A DNA stretch of 50,865 nt from Escherichia phage vB_EcoS_swan01: sequence record NC_048202.1; one strand, written 5' to 3'. The position numbers and the translations under genes were made by a program. Positions 17,647 through 47,595 of the stretch are shown here, piece by piece (the first letter of the stretch is position 1; the number at the start of each line of letters is the position of its first letter). Under the pieces are notes generated by a model. The model ran no database searches. It was not told the origin of the DNA and saw only the letters and a list, made by a program, of their open reading frames with translations.

Positions 17647-17692
17647 TTATAGCACTTTTTGTTAAAAGTGGAATTAATTTATTTGATAGATT
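17647..17692 (+). promoter_or_regulatory. motif copy inverted relative to the late genes (TATAGCACTTTTTGTTAAAA, 22 nt, TAGATT)
   Basis: conserved motif with a -10-like hexamer at canonical spacing, but pointing antisense to the tail genes; in gene sense the motif directly abuts the AAGGAG RBS of the G gene. Confidence 0.45.
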
Positions 17693-20059: not shown

Positions 20060-20326
20060 TTAATATTCTCCGCCATCCTCTAGCTCTTTGCGGCTCTTGC
20101 CCTCTGTAGGATCTTTTTTGCGCTTCTTCTCCGCTTTCTCCTTGATTTGCTCGTTAATTTCGGAATTGTCTTTAACTTCCACATCGCAGCGAGCGATCAG
20201 GTATTCAATTGCGGAATCATTAATACGATCAGATTCAATTTCAATCTCATCACCAGGGTGATAACGCTTACCGTCCATAATAATCATGCAAACGCCAGTT
20301 ACTTTAAGTTTTAAAGTTTTGCTCAT
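20060..20326 (-). CDS. hypothetical protein
   Basis: 88 aa, Lys/Glu-rich C-terminus. Confidence 0.45.
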
Positions 20327-33026: not shown

Positions 33027-33073
33027 ACTATACAGCAAGCCCGATGATCTGTTTTTTGCAAAAAGTGCTATTT
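33027..33073 (-). promoter_or_regulatory. motif promoter-like element (AAATAGCACTTTTTGCAAAAAA, then TATAGT)
   Basis: motif overlaps the TAG stop of the small ORF 33068..33229; -10-like hexamer inside an inverted repeat; leader CATCAACAACAAACGAGGA. Confidence 0.55.
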
Positions 33074-33229
33074 ACGAACGCATAACGCTGTTACATCCTT
33101 CCCACTATCTGACATGTGGAGAATAACTTGCTTTCGCGCTTCCTGGCATCTTGATTCGCCGTGGAACTCCTGCGACTCAATAGCTGCGGAGTTGTAACTT
33201 GTGACAAAGATTAAAAGCAACCAAGTCAT
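33068..33229 (-). CDS. small hypothetical protein (53 aa, below the ORF-track cutoff)
   Basis: ATG overlaps the stop of the HAD-like gene (ATGA); GGAG RBS; hydrophobic N-terminus; stop TAG lies inside the conserved motif. Confidence 0.45.
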   Translation of the reverse strand: MTWLLLIFVTSYNSAAIESQEFHGESRCQEARKQVILHMSDSGKDVTALCVRK

Positions 33230-33765
33230 TTTAAACACTCCACGCCGTGAGATTTCAGGTGAGCGTGTGGCTTGTCGTATTCCGTGACCTGATAGGTTGT
33301 GATTCCCAGGCTGCGGAAGTGCTTAACAACGTTCGGCGAATCGTCAAAGGCGCAAACAATATTGTCCAGGCCAATAGCGCGCAATGCTTCTTCTTTAATA
33401 ACCGTATCCTTTCGGTTGTCCTCCTGGCGGCGCATGATGATTTCGTCAAACTTCACGCCGTTCTCATTCAACCATTTGCATGTTTCATAGCGCACTTCGT
33501 CGCTGCGTCCGGTCAAGATGACGATGGCAAATCCCGACACCCACAAACCGTTAATAACCGCGATCGTGCTTTTAATCGGTGAATCTCCGGCGGCGGCCCT
33601 GTTAAATTCGCTCCACGATTCCGTAAGGTGTAAGTTTTCAGTTGGCAGCAAATGCAAACGATGCGATCCGTCCGATAGTGTGCCGTCCAGGTCAACGATA
33701 ACAATCGGCTTGCTGGTGATTAATTCGTACTTCTTGCCCCATAGTTCGAAAGTGTATTTTTTCAT
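33226..33765 (-). CDS. HAD-superfamily phosphatase-like protein
   Basis: VIVDLDGTLSDGSHR contains the DxDGT motif of HAD hydrolases (as in PNK 3'-phosphatase or nucleotidase domains). Confidence 0.55.
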   Translation of the reverse strand: MKKYTFELWGKKYELITSKPIVIVDLDGTLSDGSHRLHLLPTENLHLTESWSEFNRAAAGDSPIKSTIAVINGLWVSGFAIVILTGRSDEVRYETCKWLNENGVKFDEIIMRRQEDNRKDTVIKEEALRAIGLDNIVCAFDDSPNVVKHFRSLGITTYQVTEYDKPHAHLKSHGVECLK

Positions 33766-33776
33766 TATAAAACCTA

Positions 33777-33998
33777 TCAATTAAAATGGATTTGCTTGTA
33801 TTCTATTTCATCTGCCAGATCATTTAACTTATCTGCCAGCTTGCGCACTTGGTCAACGGTAAGTATCGACCTAAAATCCGGCCTACGCCCACCCTCAAAC
33901 GTGCCATCAATAAAAACTCGATCGCCAAACTTGTATACATCAATCGCGTCGCCGTGGTTATCAGTAAACCTGTGCTTGACGCGCTTATTTGTTTTCAT
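33777..33998 (-). CDS. hypothetical protein
   Basis: 73-aa ORF. Confidence 0.45.
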   Translation of the reverse strand: MKTNKRVKHRFTDNHGDAIDVYKFGDRVFIDGTFEGGRRPDFRSILTVDQVRKLADKLNDLADEIEYKQIHFN

Positions 33999-34230
33999 CT
34001 TTCACTTCCTCAAATTCCGCGTCTGTAATCTGCTCAAACTCGGCAACTACGTTTTCAAACGCAACGATCTCAGTTCCATTCTCGCCGTTAAGGTAAAACT
34101 TGTATCCGTTGTTGCAGTGAACATGATAAGAGTGACCATCTCTTGTGTCCTTCTTGCCCTGGTACACCTTGCCAGGCGTGAAGAATGGTCTATTGCTCTT
34201 AACGCAAAGAAAATTGTTTTCAATGATCAT
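33985..34230 (-). CDS. small protein, member of a paralogous family
   Basis: aligns by eye with 34227..34448 (LCVxxN...F.PG.xY...FYLNGExGT...AEFE). Confidence 0.5.
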   Translation of the reverse strand: MIIENNFLCVKSNRPFFTPGKVYQGKKDTRDGHSYHVHCNNGYKFYLNGENGTEIVAFENVVAEFEQITDAEFEEVKDENK

Positions 34231-34448
34231 TGTTTCACTTCCTCAAATTCAGCCATTACCATAGCGTGTGCCATAACCTTAGTGCCTTCGCCGCCGTTCA
34301 GGAACATGCGATGCCCCTTACTATTGCTCACGTAAAAAGATCCGGTTGATGTTTTCAGTTTTTGCGCCGTATAGATTTCGCCAGGCTTGAACATACCAGA
34401 GCAAGCATAGTTAACGGAAACGCATTTCATCTTCTTTTTAATGTACAT
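34227..34448 (-). CDS. small protein, member of a paralogous family
   Basis: start at MYIKKKMKCV with AAGGAG RBS; paralog of 33985..34230. Confidence 0.5.
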   Translation of the reverse strand: MYIKKKMKCVSVNYACSGMFKPGEIYTAQKLKTSTGSFYVSNSKGHRMFLNGGEGTKVMAHAMVMAEFEEVKQ

Positions 34449-34477
34449 CGTTTTATCTCCTTCGTTGAAAGTAGGGC

Positions 34478-34524
34478 CATTATACCTGGCCCCACATTTG
34501 AGTTTTAACAATTCGTGCTATTTA
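34478..34524 (-). promoter_or_regulatory. motif promoter-like element (AAATAGCACGAATTGTTAAAA, ~21 nt, TATAAT)
   Basis: motif directly follows the TAA stop of 34522..35415; perfect TATAAT within an inverted repeat; about 30-nt leader to the next ATG. Confidence 0.6.
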
Positions 34525-35415
34525 CACTTTGACCTTCCACTTAACCATCGTTCCGCGCTTAATGCTGATCTCACCTGCAATCGTCCGGTTTTTATAGCCG
34601 CCGTAGTGAAGCAGAAGGATAACAACGTCATCATGAATCTCGATCGTCTTTGGCGTAGCCGTTACTTCATACCAGGTGCCGTCATCAAGCCGGACTCCTT
34701 TTAGAGTGGCTGCAACTGGCATATCTTCAATTGCGCCCTGCGTTACGATTTCTTGATTTGCAAATGCGCTCTTGTCAATGCGCCAGCCTCCAGGCGCTTT
34801 CATTTCGGCAGCCGCTTTGTGGATCTCATCGCCAATGATTTTTTGAATTGACGTCTTACCGCCGCCGAATGGAGTTTCTCCAAACAAGTGTTTTGTAATG
34901 TCTTCCACGTAGTACACTTTATCCTCTTCGTTGTGCGGATTGTATCTATTGTGACCGTTGACAAAGAAATCAACTTTCAACCCTGATTTCGTACCATCGC
35001 TATAAACGCCATTTTCGCGCGATGTGTAGCGAATCGTTGACTTACCAGTCGTGCGGAACGTGATCGGATACTTGATATTGTCCAGACTTAAGCACCACAG
35101 CTTTTTATAGTCGCATGTTTTCATCTCGACCATCGGAATCTCTGCGCGTTCCGGTGAGCGCACTGGCAACACCTGGCCTTTATATGGCTTGTAGTGGAAG
35201 CTGGTATATCCTGGCATTGCATAGCCATAGTCTTTAAGTGCGTTGTACTGCGTATTGTGCGCATCAATAAAGTGTTCAATCTCCATTGTTGATGGGCTTA
35301 GTTTGTCGCTATTCATATCAACCTTATGGCATGTTTTTTCATCGGTAAAAATGTAATGACCAATGCCGCGAGATTCGAAGGTGATCGGGAATTTAATGTC
35401 AGCAAGTTTTAACAT
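34522..35415 (-). CDS. hypothetical protein with internal repeat
   Basis: 297 aa; two similar segments (IKFPITFESRG... and IKYPITFRTTG...). Confidence 0.5.
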   Translation of the reverse strand: MLKLADIKFPITFESRGIGHYIFTDEKTCHKVDMNSDKLSPSTMEIEHFIDAHNTQYNALKDYGYAMPGYTSFHYKPYKGQVLPVRSPERAEIPMVEMKTCDYKKLWCLSLDNIKYPITFRTTGKSTIRYTSRENGVYSDGTKSGLKVDFFVNGHNRYNPHNEEDKVYYVEDITKHLFGETPFGGGKTSIQKIIGDEIHKAAAEMKAPGGWRIDKSAFANQEIVTQGAIEDMPVAATLKGVRLDDGTWYEVTATPKTIEIHDDVVILLLHYGGYKNRTIAGEISIKRGTMVKWKVKV

Positions 35416-35430
35416 GGTGATTTCTCCTAA

Positions 35431-35613
35431 TTACTTAATTCTAACTTCAACGTCAATATCTGCGTTAGGGGCGAATAGCTGCGCCTTGCCATTTACACGA
35501 ATTGTAAGAATGTTCTCTTTGCGGCAGTTATCCAGCACTAGGCGATATTTGCCAGCAAACTTAACCATCATTCCCGGCTTGACTTCTCTCATTTTGATGA
35601 TCTTATCCATCAT
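35431..35613 (-). CDS. hypothetical protein
   Basis: 60 aa, AAAGGGG RBS; preceded by a ~200-nt untranslated GC-rich leader. Confidence 0.45.
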   Translation of the reverse strand: MMDKIIKMREVKPGMMVKFAGKYRLVLDNCRKENILTIRVNGKAQLFAPNADIDVEVRIK

Positions 35614-35815
35614 TAACCCCTTTCACATAAATAACCGTTTAATCTTTGGTGACGGGCTTCACTTCGTCGGTAGCCTCAGTTCAGTGACCTATCTAGCGTT
35701 CTGCCTGGTGGCGAGTGTGATAGTTCTGGCCTCACGGTTGGGAATCCTGACACTTCGATCAAGCCCCTGCGTCGCTCCTCTCCCGCAGCAATCCTTGCCG
35801 CCCGTCTATGTGTGT
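35614..35815 (-). ncRNA. candidate structured 5' leader / noncoding RNA
   Basis: about 200 nt between a motif promoter and the next RBS with no credible ORF; GC-rich with long-range complementarity (GACGGGC...GCCCGUC). Confidence 0.3.
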
Positions 35816-35861
35816 ATTATGCCTGGTTATCGTTTTTGAGTTTTAACAAAAAGTGCTATTT
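35816..35861 (-). promoter_or_regulatory. motif promoter-like element (AAAATAGCACTTTTTGTTAAAA, 22 nt, CATAAT)
   Basis: motif overlaps the TAG stop of the lipoprotein gene; -10-like hexamer at canonical spacing. Confidence 0.6.
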
Positions 35862-36128
35862 TGTCTCGACGGTCATATGTTCTGTCTTCGTGCCTTTGCC
35901 ATTGCTTTTCGACACTTCCCAGCTAGTCGTGCCCTTACAGTTGGTGAAGTAAACAGTGCGATCGTCATAGAATCGGTAAACGGTGCAACCGTCAGCGGTG
36001 AATAGCTCCCTTACGCTGTAGTCATCGCCAGGGTTAGCCATCTGCACATTGCCAACATGCGCGCCATCTTCTTTGCATCCGGTCAGGAATGCCATTGCCG
36101 CCAAAACGCTGATTAATGCCTTTTTCAT
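35856..36128 (-). CDS. lipoprotein
   Basis: start at MKKALISVLAAMAFLTGC (signal peptide plus lipobox); ATGA overlap with the upstream gene. Confidence 0.55.
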   Translation of the reverse strand: MKKALISVLAAMAFLTGCKEDGAHVGNVQMANPGDDYSVRELFTADGCTVYRFYDDRTVYFTNCKGTTSWEVSKSNGKGTKTEHMTVETK

Positions 36129-36589
36129 TGCTCTTCCTCTTTGATGATTTCGCGGATCATATCCTGGTAGCGGCTTACGCCCTCGCAAGCCCCAGCCAGT
36201 TTATCCCCTTCCAGGTCCACGATGTTCGGGATTGCTGCCAGTATGCGATCGGCAAACTTTTTGATCGCCCTTGCCTTGATGGCTGGCAATTCTTCTGGTG
36301 TGATGATTTTCCTTTTCGATTCGCGGACCATGCGGAAAACGTAAAATTTATCATCTTCCGTTTCCTCTACCTTGATACTTACCCGACCTGCGGCCCTTAC
36401 TTCTGGAACGCGGTTGATAATGGTCCGGCTGTAGGATGAACTGCGCGTGATCTTGTAGCAGTCGTCACCGCTTAACATTCCGGCCAGGTCAATTAGTGAC
36501 ATTTTATACTCTTCAATATCGCCACTAGCCAGGCGGCGACCAAGCTCGCGAAGCCAATCGCAATAGTCCTTAGTGGTCTTCTGTTCCAT
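36125..36589 (-). CDS. hypothetical protein (first gene of a leftward operon)
   Basis: start at MEQKTTKDY with GGAGGAAAGGA RBS, about 30 nt downstream of a consensus sigma70 promoter. Confidence 0.55.
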   Translation of the reverse strand: MEQKTTKDYCDWLRELGRRLASGDIEEYKMSLIDLAGMLSGDDCYKITRSSSYSRTIINRVPEVRAAGRVSIKVEETEDDKFYVFRMVRESKRKIITPEELPAIKARAIKKFADRILAAIPNIVDLEGDKLAGACEGVSRYQDMIREIIKEEEQ

Positions 36590-36620
36590 TTCCTTTCCTC
36601 CAGTTGTTGACTGTTGGCGC

Positions 36621-36649
36621 ATTATAAAAGCTATTTGGTGCGTGTCAAT
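36621..36649 (-). promoter_or_regulatory. consensus sigma70 promoter (TTGACA-N17-TATAAT)
   Basis: perfect -35 and -10 hexamers with 17-bp spacer read on the minus strand, upstream of gene 36125..36589. Confidence 0.65.
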
Positions 36650-36789
36650 GTTTTTGTTGTATTCAAAACGTTACCAATATCGAAAAACTACAAAATCATG
36701 CGCAAGTTATTGATTTCAGGGCTGTTATTTTTCTGTTCACGCTGTTAACGCAATCCGCCGGAAAAAGTATATATACATATGCAATCCGC

Positions 36790-36960
36790 CGCGCGCGCAA
36801 CTATCCATATATACCCACACACAACCACACCATAACCAACAAAAAGCACTGTAACAGTGAGAACAAAAAGAAAACATTATAGATATATATAAATAAATAA
36901 TCTTTATTTTCAATGTATTATAGAGGGATTTTTTTGTTTTTTTCGTTTTCGCTACACCGG
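36790..36960. repeat. AT/CA-rich intergenic element, related to the one at ~6640-6800
   Basis: shared strings ccacacacaaccacacc...aacaaaaag and ataaataaataa; direct repeat gcaatccgccg x2; inside a 660-bp non-coding region. Confidence 0.5.
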
Positions 36961-37083
36961 AAAACCGCGCGGAAACACGCCGCCTGAAATCGGTAACAGG
37001 GGTGAACAAAAGACAACAACCGCTGACAGCCAGGCGGAAAAGTGAGGCAAGAGGGGAAGGTTTCACTATCTCCCCTGCAACCA

Positions 37084-37180
37084 ATGATTAAACGTGATTA
37101 CTTTTCTCATCAAATTTGCAAAGGCAATCATCATTTTGACGTGATTTGATTACGAATGATTACTTTTGATTATTTCGATC
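37084..37180. repeat. iteron-like direct and inverted repeats of ATGATT/TGATTAC
   Basis: at least 5 copies of (A)TGATTAC(TTTT) within ~100 bp just upstream of the first rightward motif promoter. Confidence 0.5.
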
Positions 37181-37201
37181 ACAATCCTGGTGCTAACCGT
37201 C

Positions 37202-37247
37202 AAATAGCACTTTTTGTTAAAAATCAGGCCGCCTGATCGGGTACATT
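37202..37247 (+). promoter_or_regulatory. motif promoter-like element (AAATAGCACTTTTTGTTAAAA, 22 nt, TACATT)
   Basis: first promoter of the rightward small-gene block; leader CATCGAAACGAACC precedes the RBS. Confidence 0.6.
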
Positions 37248-37282
37248 ACACACATCGAAACGAACCGCTCAGGAGATAGTAA

Positions 37283-37555
37283 ATGAACATCAGCAAAACC
37301 ACTTTCAATTTCGCTAAGCGTCACGGTCTGGAACTGACTGTTGAAGATTTTGGCGATGTTCTGCAACTCTGCATTTGGGAAGCAGATAACGATTGCGAGT
37401 GGCTTTGCTCTTATCGTATCAACTACGATTGCTTGACCTGGCACGGCAATATCTATCTGCCGCAAGAAGTGAAAGAAGAATTGCCAGCGACTATCAACAA
37501 CGAAGTTTTCTTGCGCCAGGTGCTGAAATTTATCAGTAAGGAGATCAAAAAATAA
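37283..37555 (+). CDS. hypothetical protein
   Basis: 90 aa, AGGAGA RBS. Confidence 0.55.
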   Translation: MNISKTTFNFAKRHGLELTVEDFGDVLQLCIWEADNDCEWLCSYRINYDCLTWHGNIYLPQEVKEELPATINNEVFLRQVLKFISKEIKK

Positions 37556-37821
37556 TGGCGGTGATTACCGAAAATGATTTGGATCTGGCGGAGGCGTTTT
37601 GCAGGGCCGCCAGGGCTAACCTGGATGTGACCACTAAATTTCTTCCGGCGCGACCACTCTTTTCGTGTGCGCCCGTGAATAAACCGACTCGCGTAATGAT
37701 CGTGATTGAAGGTGATGGCCTGTACGCTGAAAAGACGTTCCACATCAGCAACATTAAGGGCCGTGCTGATTTTATCAATGATGTTTGCTTATTGCAGGAG
37801 AAGAAAAAATGTTGGATGTGA
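37555..37821 (+). CDS. hypothetical protein
   Basis: TAATG overlap with upstream gene. Confidence 0.5.
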   Translation: MAVITENDLDLAEAFCRAARANLDVTTKFLPARPLFSCAPVNKPTRVMIVIEGDGLYAEKTFHISNIKGRADFINDVCLLQEKKKCWM

Positions 37822-38018
37822 TCAAGAAAGCACATGAGATGGGTATGGATGTTTTAATCACTGACGCGCGACGCTATAACCGCTCAATGCCTGAAAATAT
37901 GGTTGTAGTCATCGTGCATAATCTTAAGTTTGAATGCCGCGCAATTTTTGAGAAGCAGGATAAAGAGTCTCAACGCTGTTTTATCAACGAAGTTTGCGAT
38001 CTGTATGGGAGGATCTGA
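37809..38018 (+). CDS. hypothetical protein
   Basis: start at MLDVIKK with AGGAGA RBS. Confidence 0.45.
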   Translation: MLDVIKKAHEMGMDVLITDARRYNRSMPENMVVVIVHNLKFECRAIFEKQDKESQRCFINEVCDLYGRI

Positions 38019-38019
38019 A

Positions 38020-38232
38020 ATGTTCAAGAAATTGTTATGGCTGTACCGCTCCAGGCGCAACAAGGGATATTGCAGGGGCACGGAAAGGAATCTTGACCGC
38101 GCTTATAAATACTGCCTGTTGTTGCTCGCCAGTCTGCCGGAAAACAGGAAGGAATATATTGCGCTGCGAGAAATAACAATGCGGATATATAGTTACCGCA
38201 ATAAACTATACGTCTTTAAATCTTTACGATAA
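38020..38232 (+). CDS. hypothetical protein
   Basis: start at MFKKLLW with GGGAGGA RBS. Confidence 0.45.
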   Translation: MFKKLLWLYRSRRNKGYCRGTERNLDRAYKYCLLLLASLPENRKEYIALREITMRIYSYRNKLYVFKSLR

Positions 38233-38244
38233 GGAGTAATAACC

Positions 38245-38508
38245 ATGAAAATTAATGCACCTATTCCAGTTAAGCGCAAAGCACGTTTGCTAAATAACGG
38301 ATGTTACGCCCTGCGGCCCGCATTTAAGGATCGCACATTTCCGGTTATCGTTAACGTGTCTCACGTAAGCCGTAGCGGAAACCTGGTATTCGTTAAAGGT
38401 GAAGATCTGACGGCACTTGGATTCTATGGCGGTGTTCACGGCGAACCGCTCGGATTCTGGCTTGTAAATCCGTTAACTGGAGAGCGTGAAATCGAATTTC
38501 TGGACTAA
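38245..38508 (+). CDS. hypothetical protein
   Basis: 87 aa, AAGGAG RBS. Confidence 0.55.
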   Translation: MKINAPIPVKRKARLLNNGCYALRPAFKDRTFPVIVNVSHVSRSGNLVFVKGEDLTALGFYGGVHGEPLGFWLVNPLTGEREIEFLD

Positions 38509-38552
38509 ATAGCACTTTTTGTTAAAAACGATGCGCTGCTGATTGGTATAGT
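38507..38552 (+). promoter_or_regulatory. motif promoter-like element (AAATAGCACTTTTTGTTAAAA, 22 nt, TATAGT)
   Basis: motif starts inside the TAA stop of 38245..38508; -10-like hexamer inside an inverted repeat. Confidence 0.6.
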
Positions 38553-38583
38553 AAGCGCATCGACAACAAACGAGGATTTAAAG

Positions 38584-38781
38584 ATGGAAAATCAGGTTGA
38601 TGTTAAAGTTGTTAAGCGCGACAAGTCTCACGAAAAAGGTTTGTTTAAGAAAGGTGCTGAAATCACCATTGACCTTGATGATATGGAGGCGTACCACTCA
38701 GGGCTAACTTGGAATGTTCGCAAATGTGAAAACGGCCTGTTCAAGTTAAATGGCTTTGAAACATACATGGAGATCATCTAA
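38584..38781 (+). CDS. small protein (possible member of the small paralog family)
   Basis: 65 aa. Confidence 0.5.
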   Translation: MENQVDVKVVKRDKSHEKGLFKKGAEITIDLDDMEAYHSGLTWNVRKCENGLFKLNGFETYMEII

Positions 38782-38993
38782 TGGCAAAGCAATTAAAACT
38801 TAAATGCGTAGAAACTTATAACTCAACTTGGAGATTTACGCGCGGAAAAGAATACCCGCTAATGGGAAATCTCAAAGAAGATCCTCATGTAATTTCAGAT
38901 AATGGCCTTCACCTTTATTTAATGGAATACAACGATGGCTATATTGGTGCTGGTGTTCCAGGCCATAAATTTAAGATGAAAAATAAGAAATGA
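38781..38993 (+). CDS. small protein, member of a paralogous family
   Basis: LKCVETYNSTWRFTRGKEY...LHLYLMEYNDG resembles 34227..34448 and 33985..34230. Confidence 0.5.
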   Translation: MAKQLKLKCVETYNSTWRFTRGKEYPLMGNLKEDPHVISDNGLHLYLMEYNDGYIGAGVPGHKFKMKNKK

Positions 38994-39101
38994 GGCTATT
39001 TATTTTCAAAAATGCCTGGATGGTAGCGGTTGCAAATGACCATTACGGCGGCGACGGAAAAAGAGCACGACGCCATTCATATTTCAATTGAGGATATTTA
39101 A

Positions 39102-39329
39102 ATGAAAGCAAAAGTTTTAAACATTATGTCAACTATTGACGCTCATCACCGCGTGGCTGTAAAACTTGATAAGTCTTGTGGAATTAGCCAAATCACTATC
39201 ACCGAGGGCAAAGGCGGCTATCTTATCGGTATCCATCCAGGCGGTAAGGTGCGCAAATACAATAAAGATCAGTTAAAAGAATTACTGGAAGAAAACGCTT
39301 TCTATATTCAAAGTTGGCGTGCTCTTTAA
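39102..39329 (+). CDS. hypothetical protein
   Basis: 75 aa, followed by a terminator. Confidence 0.5.
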   Translation: MKAKVLNIMSTIDAHHRVAVKLDKSCGISQITITEGKGGYLIGIHPGGKVRKYNKDQLKELLEENAFYIQSWRAL

Positions 39330-39334
39330 TTAAT

Positions 39335-39358
39335 ATGGCGGCGTTTTGCCGCCTTTTA
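39335..39358 (+). terminator. rho-independent terminator
   Basis: ggcggcg-tttt-gccgcc hairpin plus T-run. Confidence 0.65.
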
Positions 39359-39370
39359 AATGAGGTGGAA

Positions 39371-39487
39371 ATGATAGATAAGGCTATTGATTTCTTTTTT
39401 TATTCGATTATTGGCGCGGTTGGCTTTTTGGTTACTGCTGCTGGCCTGGCTATTATATTGGCTGTTATTAAGGGGATTATGCGATGA
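39371..39487 (+). CDS. small hydrophobic protein (38 aa, below the ORF-track cutoff)
   Basis: ATG with GAGGTGG RBS; predicted single transmembrane helix; stop overlaps the next ATG (ATGA). Confidence 0.45.
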   Translation: MIDKAIDFFFYSIIGAVGFLVTAAGLAIILAVIKGIMR

Positions 39488-39708
39488 GTCAAGACGGATT
39501 TTTTGAGCGCCTTCAAATGGCAGAAGATGCCGGACTAAATAAAGAGGCGGCGCTTGAAGTGGCATATAAAATTAAGAGTCTTGATGAGGCTTTAGGTGAT
39601 ATGGATATGGATCTTGAATCAAGCGCAATATTTGCAGATCCCACTATGATTGTTAATGATTGTGGATGCGATTTCGATCCTGGTTGTCCGCGCTGTTTTC
39701 CGTTTTGA
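39484..39708 (+). CDS. hypothetical protein
   Basis: 74 aa, acidic, C-terminal CGCDFDPGCPRC. Confidence 0.5.
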   Translation: MSQDGFFERLQMAEDAGLNKEAALEVAYKIKSLDEALGDMDMDLESSAIFADPTMIVNDCGCDFDPGCPRCFPF

Positions 39709-39718
39709 GGTAATGACG

Positions 39719-40429
39719 ATGTATAAAGGTTTAATATTCTCCCTATTTGATGGATCTGGTAAAGCAGTTAAAGATTGGGCTGATAATGGCTATAAGTGCA
39801 TTTGCTTTAATGCTGACGGCGGCGATCACGGTGATTACCAGTCAGTGCGCATACAGCATGAGAATATCGAATACGTTAACGTCTGGATTGATGATGCTTT
39901 TTATGTTAAGGCAATCAATAATGAGTGGGGCAATCCTGATTTTATTATGGCGTTCCCTCCTTGCACCGACCTTGCAAATAGCGGATCTCGCCATTGGGCC
40001 AAAAAACGCCTTGAGAATCCATCGTTCCAGGATGAGGCCGCCGACACTTGCAGAATCGCGGCTGATATAGCTGATTATTTCGGTGTTCCTTACATGATCG
40101 AAAATCCGGTTGGCAAGTTGTCAACGTTATGGCGTAAGCCTGATTATACGTTCCATCCGTGCGATTACGCTGGCTATCTGCCGGAAGATGATAAACATCC
40201 CGACTTCCCTGATATTATTCCGGCGCGTGATCGCTATTTTAAGAAAACGTGCCTCTGGACTGGCAACGGCTTTGTTATTCCTCCGCGCGCTTTAATCCTG
40301 CCGAAAGAGGAAGACAAAGATAATCCAGGCTGGGCCAAAACTGGCGGCAAGTCATCGCGCACAAAGATGATCCGCTCCCTCACTCCGCGCGGATTTGCTC
40401 GCGCCGTCTTTGAGTCAAACTCAAAATAG
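39719..40429 (+). CDS. DNA (cytosine-5) methyltransferase-like protein (putative)
   Basis: motif I-like LFDGSG, motif IV-like FPPCTD...SG and motif VI-like ENPVG in the canonical order; start could also be ATG 39713. Confidence 0.45.
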   Translation: MYKGLIFSLFDGSGKAVKDWADNGYKCICFNADGGDHGDYQSVRIQHENIEYVNVWIDDAFYVKAINNEWGNPDFIMAFPPCTDLANSGSRHWAKKRLENPSFQDEAADTCRIAADIADYFGVPYMIENPVGKLSTLWRKPDYTFHPCDYAGYLPEDDKHPDFPDIIPARDRYFKKTCLWTGNGFVIPPRALILPKEEDKDNPGWAKTGGKSSRTKMIRSLTPRGFARAVFESNSK

Positions 40430-40469
40430 CACTTTTTGTTAAAAGCCAGGTGTAAAAACCTGGCATAAT
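40424..40469 (+). promoter_or_regulatory. motif promoter-like element (AAATAGCACTTTTTGTTAAAA, 22 nt, CATAAT)
   Basis: TAG stop of the upstream gene lies at motif positions 4-6; inverted repeat in the spacer; leader CATCGAACAAACAAAGGAG. Confidence 0.6.
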
Positions 40470-40498
40470 CACATCGAACAAACAAAGGAGATCTGATC

Positions 40499-40885
40499 AT
40501 GAATGTTATCTGTAATGAAACCAACGTATTGATGAAAGGCCGTTTTAAAACGGTTTATCAGAAGATTGCAGGAAGTGATGATGTGATCGAGGTGGAAGAG
40601 TTCCAGGTTAAGACGCTTGTTAAGGGTAGCCGCTGGCTTCCAGCAAACCGAGATGATTACCGCGCCATTAACACAAAAACCGTTCTTTGCACGTTTGTAG
40701 ATCATAACATGCCGTGCAAAAAGCACTTTAAGCAGGGCAAGCGATACCAGATCGAGAAAGGGCGACCGCTTGGAAGCGTTGCGGGTTATGTTTTTGATGA
40801 GTGCGGCGACCGCTGGAACCTGTACCGTGAAGAGGTCGGATTCTCTGCTGGCGGCTGTTATCTGTTTGAGGGCAAATATCTGTGA
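40499..40885 (+). CDS. hypothetical protein
   Basis: 128 aa. Confidence 0.5.
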   Translation: MNVICNETNVLMKGRFKTVYQKIAGSDDVIEVEEFQVKTLVKGSRWLPANRDDYRAINTKTVLCTFVDHNMPCKKHFKQGKRYQIEKGRPLGSVAGYVFDECGDRWNLYREEVGFSAGGCYLFEGKYL

Positions 40886-41103
40886 TAAACAGTGAAAACC
40901 GTTACAAAGTAACGCATTCTACCACAAAGACTTTCAAGCCTGGCGATATAGTCAGGCCCATCAAAAAAACTGCGGTAGGTTGGCTGATTGGTTTTTCATA
41001 TCATAAGGCGCTTTACTTTACGTTTAAGGATGGGATTACAGGAGAATGCTACAGCGACCGCCAGCCTGATCGACTTCTGGTTGCAATAGAGCGGATCAAA
41101 TAG
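40882..41103 (+). CDS. small protein (possible member of the small paralog family)
   Basis: 73 aa; TFKPGDIV motif resembles MFKPGEIY of 34227..34448. Confidence 0.5.
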   Translation: MINSENRYKVTHSTTKTFKPGDIVRPIKKTAVGWLIGFSYHKALYFTFKDGITGECYSDRQPDRLLVAIERIK

Positions 41104-41171: not shown

Positions 41172-42752
41172 ATGTTTTCATTAGAAACGAACAAATTAAC
41201 TCCACAACAAATAATCGCTATGGCTGAAAGCCAGAACCTCTCACCAGTTCGCGTATCAATTCAGGCTAACGGCTATCGCCAGTCGTCCAGCTTTTGGGGC
41301 GACGTAAAGGATGTGAATAGCGGTCACGATCGCTACCCCGTTATTTCTCTTGGTAATGATATTGATGTTGTCGGCAAGTTATCACGCAGCATTGCGCGAT
41401 CCGTTCAATTCCCTGAATCATCGGCTTACATGCACTTTATCGGCTGCATTTCTGCCGCTATGCTTGGACGCTTTACGGTTGACTATCACGGAACCGATCA
41501 GCCGACTGCGCTTTACGTCGTTACAAGCCAGCCGCCGTCAACTGGTAAATCTGCGATCAACAGCATGGCTATTGCTCCGATGATTGCGGAAGTTGAGAAG
41601 ATCAACGAGCAACGCCGCAAGGAAAGAAAGAAAATACAGGCAAAGCTGGCAGGTCTTGCAAAGGAGATGAAAAGCGAAAGATCCGGCGCTGATATGGAAT
41701 CTCTATACCAGGAAAAAGAGGATCTGGAGGAAAAGCTGGAAAAAATGTGTGATATAACTTTTCCTGTTTCAGATACAACTCCAGAAGGCTTGGCGAAAAT
41801 CAACAACAAGCAAGGTAACTTTGCCGTAATATCTGATGAAGCAACAAGTATTAACAGTCTGTTAGGCTTGACCTATGCAAATAGCGAAAGGAAGACTAAC
41901 AGTGAGTTAGTGCTTAAGGCGTGGGATAATGGTCACGTATCAATTGCCCGTGCTAATGCTGACAATAATATGAGTTTTCGCGCGCTTGGATGTATGAGCG
42001 TCATAGCCCAGGATGAAACGATAAGCGGAATCATGGACGCTGGATCGCGAGGCATCGGTGTTAGTGAGCGTTTTTTGTTGGTCCGCGAGGAATCATTCTT
42101 AGGCCGTCGCTCATTCATTGATGAAAATGGTGATTCTACCTATGAGGCGGTGGATTCTGAATTGAAAGCCCAATATTATCAATTGGTGCATAACATCATG
42201 AGCGAATCAAATATATCGCTGAAAATAAGCCGTTCAGCTATGCGAGTGCTCAACATTGCTCGCCAGGATATGGAACCGCATCTTGCAGACGGAGGAAAGT
42301 ATTCTCATACAATGTTACGCGGTGCGCTGGGTAAAATGGATAAACAGGTGATCAGGCTTGCTTCCGTCCTGCATGTTATCCGTAACTGGTTTAATCCTGC
42401 CGGATACCCGCAGAAGTCGAAAGAGATCGACGTGGAAACAATGCAAGAGGCGTTGATCATGTTTCAGGAATTGAGCAAAACATACATTAGCGCCGCCAAT
42501 GCTTCTGGTTATGCTGGTGATGATGCTGAAATGGGTAAATTGATTGAATTGATCACGAGGCACGGCAAGGCTAATAAAGGGATTCTGAATATCCGCGCCC
42601 TGTACGAATCAGCGAGAAAGGTAAAACCTTTCGTTGGTCAGGCTGGCGTAATGAAAAGGATAGAAGGGCACTTACTGCCAATGCTGGAAGAAAGAAATTA
42701 TGTTTGTGTGATTAATGGTGTTATTTTTGTCAATCCAATACTGCTGGGATGA
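41172..42752 (+). CDS. P-loop NTPase, replication-associated (putative)
   Basis: 526 aa; Walker A-like SQPPSTGKSA; no further family assignment possible by eye. Confidence 0.5.
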   Translation: MFSLETNKLTPQQIIAMAESQNLSPVRVSIQANGYRQSSSFWGDVKDVNSGHDRYPVISLGNDIDVVGKLSRSIARSVQFPESSAYMHFIGCISAAMLGRFTVDYHGTDQPTALYVVTSQPPSTGKSAINSMAIAPMIAEVEKINEQRRKERKKIQAKLAGLAKEMKSERSGADMESLYQEKEDLEEKLEKMCDITFPVSDTTPEGLAKINNKQGNFAVISDEATSINSLLGLTYANSERKTNSELVLKAWDNGHVSIARANADNNMSFRALGCMSVIAQDETISGIMDAGSRGIGVSERFLLVREESFLGRRSFIDENGDSTYEAVDSELKAQYYQLVHNIMSESNISLKISRSAMRVLNIARQDMEPHLADGGKYSHTMLRGALGKMDKQVIRLASVLHVIRNWFNPAGYPQKSKEIDVETMQEALIMFQELSKTYISAANASGYAGDDAEMGKLIELITRHGKANKGILNIRALYESARKVKPFVGQAGVMKRIEGHLLPMLEERNYVCVINGVIFVNPILLG

Positions 42753-47549: not shown

Positions 47550-47595
47550 ATTATGGCGCAATCCATCGCGCCAGTTTTAACAAAAAGTGCTATTT
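47550..47595 (-). promoter_or_regulatory. motif promoter-like element (AAATAGCACTTTTTGTTAAAA, 22 nt, CATAAT)
   Basis: TAG stop of the VRR-NUC gene embedded in the motif; drives the Dam gene. Confidence 0.6.

Follow-up and report, generated by a model that had tools for sequence, protein, structure and literature searches.

A Putative Multicopy Family of Gp54-like β-Barrel Proteins in the Early Region of Escherichia Phage vB_EcoS_swan01

Few phage proteins have been shown to be sensed directly by bacterial immunity, and Gp54 of phage Bas11 is one of them. It binds the pseudo-zinc-finger domain of CapRelSJ46 at ∼800 nM, shedding β1 and β6 and adding its remaining strands to the partner's sheet; CapRel is escaped by the mutation G24D, the changes A7V or I25V abolish CapRelSJ46 activation, and the protein is non-essential (PMC11578894). 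In that account Gp54 is treated as a lone protein of rare topology, and no paralogs are mentioned (PMC11578894). A second small phage protein, Pfam family DUF7244 (PF23896), was described in 2026 as the stand-alone SH3 of the Drexlerviridae lysis module, a member of the SH3 clan present in 188 of 522 genomes; a role in lysis was proposed from its position beside the holin, and neither Gp54 nor paralogs are mentioned (PMC13164509). Here we analyze the 50,865-nucleotide (nt) sequence of Escherichia phage vB_EcoS_swan01 (NC_048202.1; hereafter the window), in which a first-pass annotation had singled out six small open reading frames (ORFs), labelled A–F, as an expanded family of paralogous early proteins.

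All six ORFs are present in the window and are annotated as genes in Escherichia phage Phunderstruck, the closest phage. The ∼9 kb around them is 98% identical to Phunderstruck, tonn, tinuso, and other Warwickvirus (Drexlerviridae, T1-like siphoviruses). An expanded family of small paralogs in the early region, on both strands, holds up well, with a changed membership: E belongs by fold, the C-terminal domain of a 128-amino acid (aa) protein that had been missed joins it, F leaves it, and D is unproven. The genes concerned are the following.

34227..34448, minus strand: A, a 73-aa stand-alone protein with a predicted Gp54-like β-barrel; first gene behind a motif promoter and the widespread ortholog of the A/B family.
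33985..34230, minus strand: B, an 81-aa paralog of A (34% identity, isoelectric point (pI) 5.1); its ATG overlaps the A stop (ATGA); an inserted cassette.
38584..38781, plus strand: E, a 65-aa member of the Gp54 family; first gene behind a motif promoter.
38781..38993, plus strand: C, a 70-aa probable remote homolog of A/B, pI 9.4; its start overlaps the E stop (TAATG), and it is co-transcribed with E.
40499..40885, plus strand: the 128-aa conserved protein, whose C-terminal domain (residues ∼58–128, nt ∼40670–40885) is a predicted Gp54-like barrel.
40882..41103, plus strand: D, 73 aa; its GTG start overlaps the stop of the 128-aa gene (GTGA); a candidate member only.
35431..35613, minus strand: F, behind a motif promoter; not a family member.

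The window thus appears to carry at least five Gp54-like copies, namely, A, B, C, E, and the C-terminal domain of the 128-aa protein. As modeled, the domain is a six-stranded SH3-like β-barrel with a long β1–β2 loop, the fold solved for Gp54 of Bas11. On balance we lean toward reading these copies as a multicopy superfamily of small protein-binding modules built on one such barrel, made early in infection, whose partners have diverged. The assignment of E was already known; what we add is that Gp54 can be linked with the A/B, C, and 128-aa families, DUF7244, and a kinase-fused domain, that T1-like genomes carry several copies each, and that copies are added through a cassette mechanism. Gp54 would then not be a structural orphan, as its fold recurs four to five times per T1-like genome in the form of cassette-swapped stand-alone genes, a conserved domain beside the helicase, and a phosphatase/kinase fusion in sister phages.

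The sequence evidence is strongest for A and B, which are beyond doubt paralogs: their single-sequence Smith–Waterman score stands at z = 20.7 with none of 1000 shuffles reaching it, at 34% identity. In the same test B–D (z = 5.0, 1/1000 shuffles) and A–D (z = 3.9, 3/1000) are marginal, B–C (z = 2.4), B–E (z = 2.1), and A–C (z = 1.6) are weak, and F gives a z near 0 with every partner. Single sequences therefore come close to the outcome that the first-pass annotation had named as speaking against a family, in which only the tandem pair A–B exceeds shuffled controls, and profiles were needed. For these, family alignments were built for each ORF from loci in 19 related phages (Warwickvirus, Hanrivervirus, Changchunvirus, Tlsvirus, Henuseptimavirus including Bas11, one Braunvirinae, one Klebsiella phage, and Edwardsiella phage PEi21) and compared with hhalign against 200–300 column-shuffled nulls per pair. 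The A/B and C families align with a score of 34.5 (null 9.1 ± 1.9, maximum 18; Prob 91%, P 9e-7; z 13.4) over 45 N-terminal columns, and since none of 300 column shuffles scores as high, we take C to be a true remote homolog of A/B on sequence grounds. In line with this, the curated PHROG profile phrog_10169 independently matches A, B, and C, and an A/B hidden Markov model (HMM) places C third among all 722 six-frame ORFs of the window (E-value 0.0015). The pattern that had been read by eye in A, B, and C is complete in A and B, while C holds its N-terminal two thirds only (KCV...F-T-x-G-x-x-Y...hV.dnG..l.L).

The 128-aa protein is reached from both sides, its C-terminal segment being matched by the A/B and the C profiles with 1/300 shuffles as good in each case. 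When one family at a time was left out of the HMM and the 722 window ORFs were searched, the 128-aa protein was the top match (E-value 9e-7), C was again the top match (0.006), A ranked second with A/B left out (0.0055), and E ranked first, but with an E-value of 0.35. In MAFFT, the A/B, C, and E families and that of the 128-aa C-terminal domain line up at β1, at a [F/W]-[K/T]-x-G-x-x-[Y/I] motif at the start of β2, at a V-x-D-x-x-G stretch, and at a C-terminal F/M-E. The hydrophobic β1 of this signature reads h-K-C-V in A, B, and C and is followed by a loop before the β2 motif; the F/M-E falls in β6, and G24 of Gp54 is the counterpart of the G that never varies in the family motif. The neighboring small proteins at 33777–33998 and 38245–38508, used as controls, gave no hhalign signal, and A–F, C–D, and C–E were not significant against column-shuffled nulls.

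The weaker resemblance once proposed for D, E, and F fares differently for each. E belongs at the level of fold and barely by sequence, as described below. D carries the FKPG part of the signature only, and its membership is that of a candidate, unproven, since this motif alone aligns: its hhalign score with A is matched by 16/300 shuffles over 15–17 columns around TFKPGDIV, its weak PDB sequence matches are SH3 domains (E-value ∼0.4), and it ranks within the top seven non-member ORFs in 7 of 13 ORF sets at 1–5 bits. F was dropped, as it shows no signal in pairwise, profile, or PDB searches and has neither part of the signature in register. Sequence 70–88% identical to protein D also occurs in ∼20 GenBank records labelled Campylobacter phage (e.g., A14a, A15a, and A112a; some are unannotated fragments), which carry Warwickvirus-like sequence; the host label of such records looks doubtful.

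Protein E matches the Pfam family PF25180, “Phage antiviral trigger protein Gp54”, over its full length (1–65) with 130.7 bits and an E-value of 1.7e-38, well above the gathering cutoff of 27 bits in our Pfam scan of 14 window proteins, and it matches PDB entry 9axb at 4.4e-17 (9AXB and 9ERV are Gp54 of Bas11). A, B, C, D, F, and the 128-aa protein have no PF25180 match at an E-value ≤1 with the family HMM; A, B, C, and the 128-aa protein are therefore classed as remote relatives rather than members of the Pfam family. E has the same sequence as Gp19 of phage SECphi27 (100% identity), which is reported not to activate CapRelSJ46 (PMC11578894), and it carries V7 and A25 at the two positions at which A7V or I25V abolish activation; the window thus holds, unlike Bas11, the non-activating allele.

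The proposed check of a shared fold by structure prediction came out in favor of one for A and the 128-aa domain. An AlphaFold2 model of A, made without templates, has a predicted local distance difference test (pLDDT) score of 93.3, and the predicted models of A and of the 128-aa domain fit the experimental Gp54 structure clearly better than they fit other folds. As that structure became public in November 2024, later than the AlphaFold2 training data, the models are unlikely to be copies of it. For B a Gp54-like fold is probable from its 34% identity to A, and for C from profile homology over 45 columns. Identity between Gp54 of Bas11 and A, B, C, and the 128-aa protein is only 12–15% in superposition. 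Canonical SH3 and SH3-like barrels (RecD SH3, FeoA, KOW, Tudor) differ in having only five strands, the sixth being replaced by a 3-10 helix, and they score far below the Gp54 match and give no sequence signal. Foldseek matches in BFVD (e.g., a 127-aa NBD2 protein at a template modeling (TM) score of 0.76) lend loose support only, as they are not assignable to specific window families.

Whether E and the 128-aa domain share ancestry with the others depends on how these data are weighed. It could be that only A, B, and C are truly related and that the likeness to Gp54 (E) and the 128-aa domain is small-barrel convergence, possibly exaggerated by structure prediction. The sequence tests between E and A/B/C are indeed weak (A–E hhalign P 0.025, with 4/300 shuffles matching the score; the leave-E-out result above), and E gives no signal with DUF7244 or with the kinase extension described below. 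But the topology is reported as rare (PMC11578894), the motif with the functionally critical G24, the long β1–β2 loop, and the terminal F/M-E all align, E and C are neighbors in the same genomes in four genera (Bas11 and SECphi27 hold other genes there), and the 128-aa domain is found at 9e-7 by a profile that includes E and excludes its own family. We consider convergence doubtful. The link of E appears to be mainly structural; those among A/B, C, and the 128-aa family also have support from sequence.

Iteration of the A/B profile recruited a 56-aa gene that lies between exonuclease and holin genes in other genera and corresponds to DUF7244 (E-value 4e-26). In hhalign the A/B core and DUF7244 align with Prob 88.7%, P 2.6e-6, and z 11.5 (0/200 shuffles). 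The two are alike in the N-terminal K-h-x-C...F-x-x-G-x-x-Y signature, in size, and in phage family; they differ in that DUF7244, at ∼56 aa, lacks the last strands in the alignment and is fixed between exonuclease and holin, whereas the window copies sit in divergent early units. PF23896 is absent among the 14 scanned window proteins, and the best match of the DUF7244 profile in the window has an E-value of 0.52. Given this kinship and the SH3 clan assignment, the window proteins might be imagined as SH3-type proteins that bind the cell wall and assist the lysis module, a role like that put forward for T1-like DUF7244 (PMC13164509). We regard this as highly improbable: no window copy lies near lysis genes, no signal peptide or transmembrane segment is seen by eye in them, their early units are shared with genes for replication and modification, and the lysis role is itself a hypothesis from gene position alone.

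In sister Warwickvirus (e.g., JLBYU16, locus L012, 10451–11161), the polynucleotide kinase/phosphatase carries a further branch as an extension of ∼57 aa at its C-terminus, with which the superfamily profile aligns at Prob 95%, P 3e-8, and z 17.8. PaulSarasin encodes this domain separately, in a gene that directly follows the one for the enzyme (locus L014, 5227–5406). The window enzyme (33226–33780) has no extension, and the ORF next to it (33068–33238, 56 aa, with a hydrophobic N-terminus) is unrelated. Across Drexlerviridae and beyond (94 clusters), the gene of the 128-aa type belongs to the conserved core, with the Dcm methylase on one side and the helicase on the other. Bas11 has four detectable members, gp54, gp48 (128-aa type), gp41 (DUF7244), and gp71 (A-like); SECphi27 has the A type as gp31, the E type as gp19, and the 128-aa type as gp13, and its 135-aa gp20 includes a C-like domain. 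Gp54 and the DUF7244 “stand-alone SH3” are in this way joined into one superfamily, and several “hypothetical protein” families of Drexlerviridae receive an annotation.

The A/B branch itself is narrow. Word-indexed protein searches with A and with B returned close relatives only, IMG/VR locus scans with A and with the family alignment found only 8 near-identical loci, and an exhaustive HMMER search of 1.84 billion representatives yielded about ten small-protein clusters. Large repetitive proteins with a PEGA-like G-x-x-h-F-L-D/N-G stretch were rejected from the HMMER results as summed matches to one β-hairpin motif and not homology, as were the designer “Cake” propellers from the PDB profile search, in which no single stretch passed. 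The 88-aa ORF at 20060–20326 (minus strand), just downstream of the major capsid gene, matched the first superfamily profile at an E-value of 0.0085 but the enlarged profile at only 0.14; this borderline match, confined to the N-terminal 35 residues, is probably due to chance. The fold could also be present in further small window ORFs that show no detectable sequence similarity. Outside Drexlerviridae, Edwardsiella phage PEi21 (Yokohamavirus) has an A/B-family relative (locus L011, 9741–10210; ORF-65/ORF-66) and the gene next to it on the upstream side gives a second, partial match, suggestive of another tandem pair.

How copies are added can be seen at B, which in alignment with JLBYU16 and grams stands out as a clean insertion of 233 bp. 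Two copies of the 18-nt direct repeat GAATTTGAGGAAGTGAAA, encoding AEFEEVK, bound the cassette.

34233..34253, minus strand: upstream direct repeat of the B cassette, encoding AEFEEVK at the A end; 95% identical over 21 nt.
34000..34020, minus strand: downstream direct repeat of the B cassette, the second AEFEEVK, at the B end.

The tail of B, DENK-stop, is the ancestral A tail, which overlaps the next gene. A B-type gene is found in ∼30 of the 156 phage records that hold a relative, one metagenomic phage pairs a 60%-identical A allele with a 99%-identical B, and stand-alone copies have been gained or lost among close relatives. The family grows by recombination and gene gain, as the B cassette shows. 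The first-pass view of a diversifying family is thus right as to gene gain and not as to positive selection: the ratio of nonsynonymous to synonymous rates (dN/dS) lies at 0.05–0.4 wherever dS exceeds 0.1, in every family, and as the ORFs analyzed included some upstream non-coding codons, the value for A is, if biased at all, too high. The family members are thus real genes maintained by purifying selection and not driven by positive diversifying selection.

If the copies are what we think, the paralogs would be small protein-binding modules expressed early in infection, each diverged toward a different host or phage partner, and the barrel would act as in Gp54, shedding β1 and β6 and adding its remaining strands to the β-sheet of the partner. 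Bacterial immunity, in the form of CapRelSJ46, would have learned to sense one branch of the family. That branch (Gp54, PF25180) is the one for which direct binding to a host defence protein has been demonstrated (PMC11578894); the anti-defence or host-takeover role suggested at the outset would be one possible use of the window copies. Several points weigh against this reading. Protein binding is an analogy from a single characterized member, the link of E to A comes from predicted structure and not from sequence, small β-barrels can converge, and no positive selection was seen in the dN/dS analysis. As regards host takeover in particular, some relatives point elsewhere, namely, the helicase-side core gene, the kinase/phosphatase fusion, and DUF7244 beside exonuclease and lysis genes. 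That the most conserved member (128 aa) adjoins the helicase and that a relative is fused to the phosphatase/kinase would fit nucleic-acid metabolism at least as well as a host-directed effector.

The domain could accordingly be asked to do something else, as a targeting or accessory module for phage nucleic-acid enzymes (replication, repair, RNA/DNA end healing) or as a nucleic-acid binder, and not as a host-takeover or anti-defence effector. The place of the 128-aa gene between methylase and helicase, the fused or following domain at the kinase/phosphatase, the position of A and B two genes upstream of the phosphatase gene, the DNA repair exonuclease next to DUF7244, and the basic character of A, C, and the 128-aa protein (pI 8.8–9.5) are all consistent with this. 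Yet some members are acidic (B, E, and Gp54), Gp54 is dispensable and has a protein as its sole known ligand, and the stand-alone copies vary among close relatives, which is unusual for core replication factors. We consider this alternative possible though not probable, with fold convergence and a lysis role less likely still, and continue to favor protein-binding modules with diverged partners.

Enzymes of the 3′-phosphatase/polynucleotide kinase class, to which the barrel is fused in sister phages, heal damaged RNA ends, and CapRel, which senses Gp54, poisons tRNA 3′ ends. As a decidedly speculative proposal with little chance of being right, the Gp54-like barrel may be a toolkit domain in a contest over tRNA and RNA ends, in which stand-alone and fused copies would recruit repair enzymes to tRNA-targeting toxins or block those toxins, and CapRel would sense a paralog of its own countermeasure. 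Testable handles include the partner of each paralog, other CapRel alleles or sensors that read other paralogs, and paralog redundancy as a reason why gp54 is dispensable.

The family genes lie in the early region, which is transcribed divergently from ∼36.7–37.2 kb; the minus-strand units lead toward the polynucleotide kinase/phosphatase gene, and the plus-strand units reach the helicase gene (41172–42752). The motif AAATAGCACTTTTTGTTAAAA occurs in 17 copies in the window, against 0.01 expected, and copies precede A, E, F, and the 128-aa gene.

34503..34523, minus strand: promoter-associated motif of the A–B unit; TTAAAA-18-TATAAT is found ahead of A.
38507..38527, plus strand: promoter-associated motif of the E–C unit, a AAATAGCACTTTTTGTTAAAA copy.
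40424..40444, plus strand: promoter-associated motif of the 128-aa–D unit, a AAATAGCACTTTTTGTTAAAA copy.
35841..35861, minus strand: promoter-associated motif ahead of F, a AAATAGCACTTTTTGTTAAAA copy.

Ahead of A and E the copies lie ∼20 nt upstream of a −10-like hexamer and are oriented with the gene. The motif looks like a phage-specific promoter or UP-type element that splits the early region into short units. B, C, and D have no AAATAGCACTTTTTGTTAAAA motif of their own, and their start codons overlap the preceding stop (ATGA, TAATG, and GTGA, respectively). Hence the notion that each gene stands behind its own motif promoter applies to A, E, and F and not to B, C, and D, and from motif positions and start/stop overlaps the units are therefore the translationally coupled pairs A–B, E–C, and 128-aa–D. 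Both A–B (pI 9.5 and 5.1) and E–C (pI 5.6 and 9.4) combine one basic and one acidic partner. As a milder variant of the speculative proposal on RNA ends, these coupled pairs may act as heterodimers, or the charges may be a coincidence.

Other AAATAGCACTTTTTGTTAAAA sites include 37202–37222 (plus strand) and 47575–47595 (minus strand), and two copies in the structural region, at 17647 and 21400 (plus strand), are oriented opposite to the genes around them. No gene is annotated in the ∼228 nt (35614–35840) that separate the motif promoter at 35841–35861 from the F start at 35613; this stretch may be a long leader or may encode an RNA or a small ORF that escaped annotation. A perfect σ70 consensus (TTGACA, 16 nt, TATAAT; 36621–36648, minus strand) stands directly upstream of a 165-aa ORF (36125–36622) and is the only 12/12 match of the region. 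Between F and A, the 297-aa protein at 34522–35415 (minus strand) contains an internal repeat (residues 2–58 versus 108–159; Smith–Waterman 64, z 7.6, 0/500 shuffles). Its JLBYU16 orthologue has only 190 aa, and the window copy therefore seems to have gained an N-terminal repeat unit.

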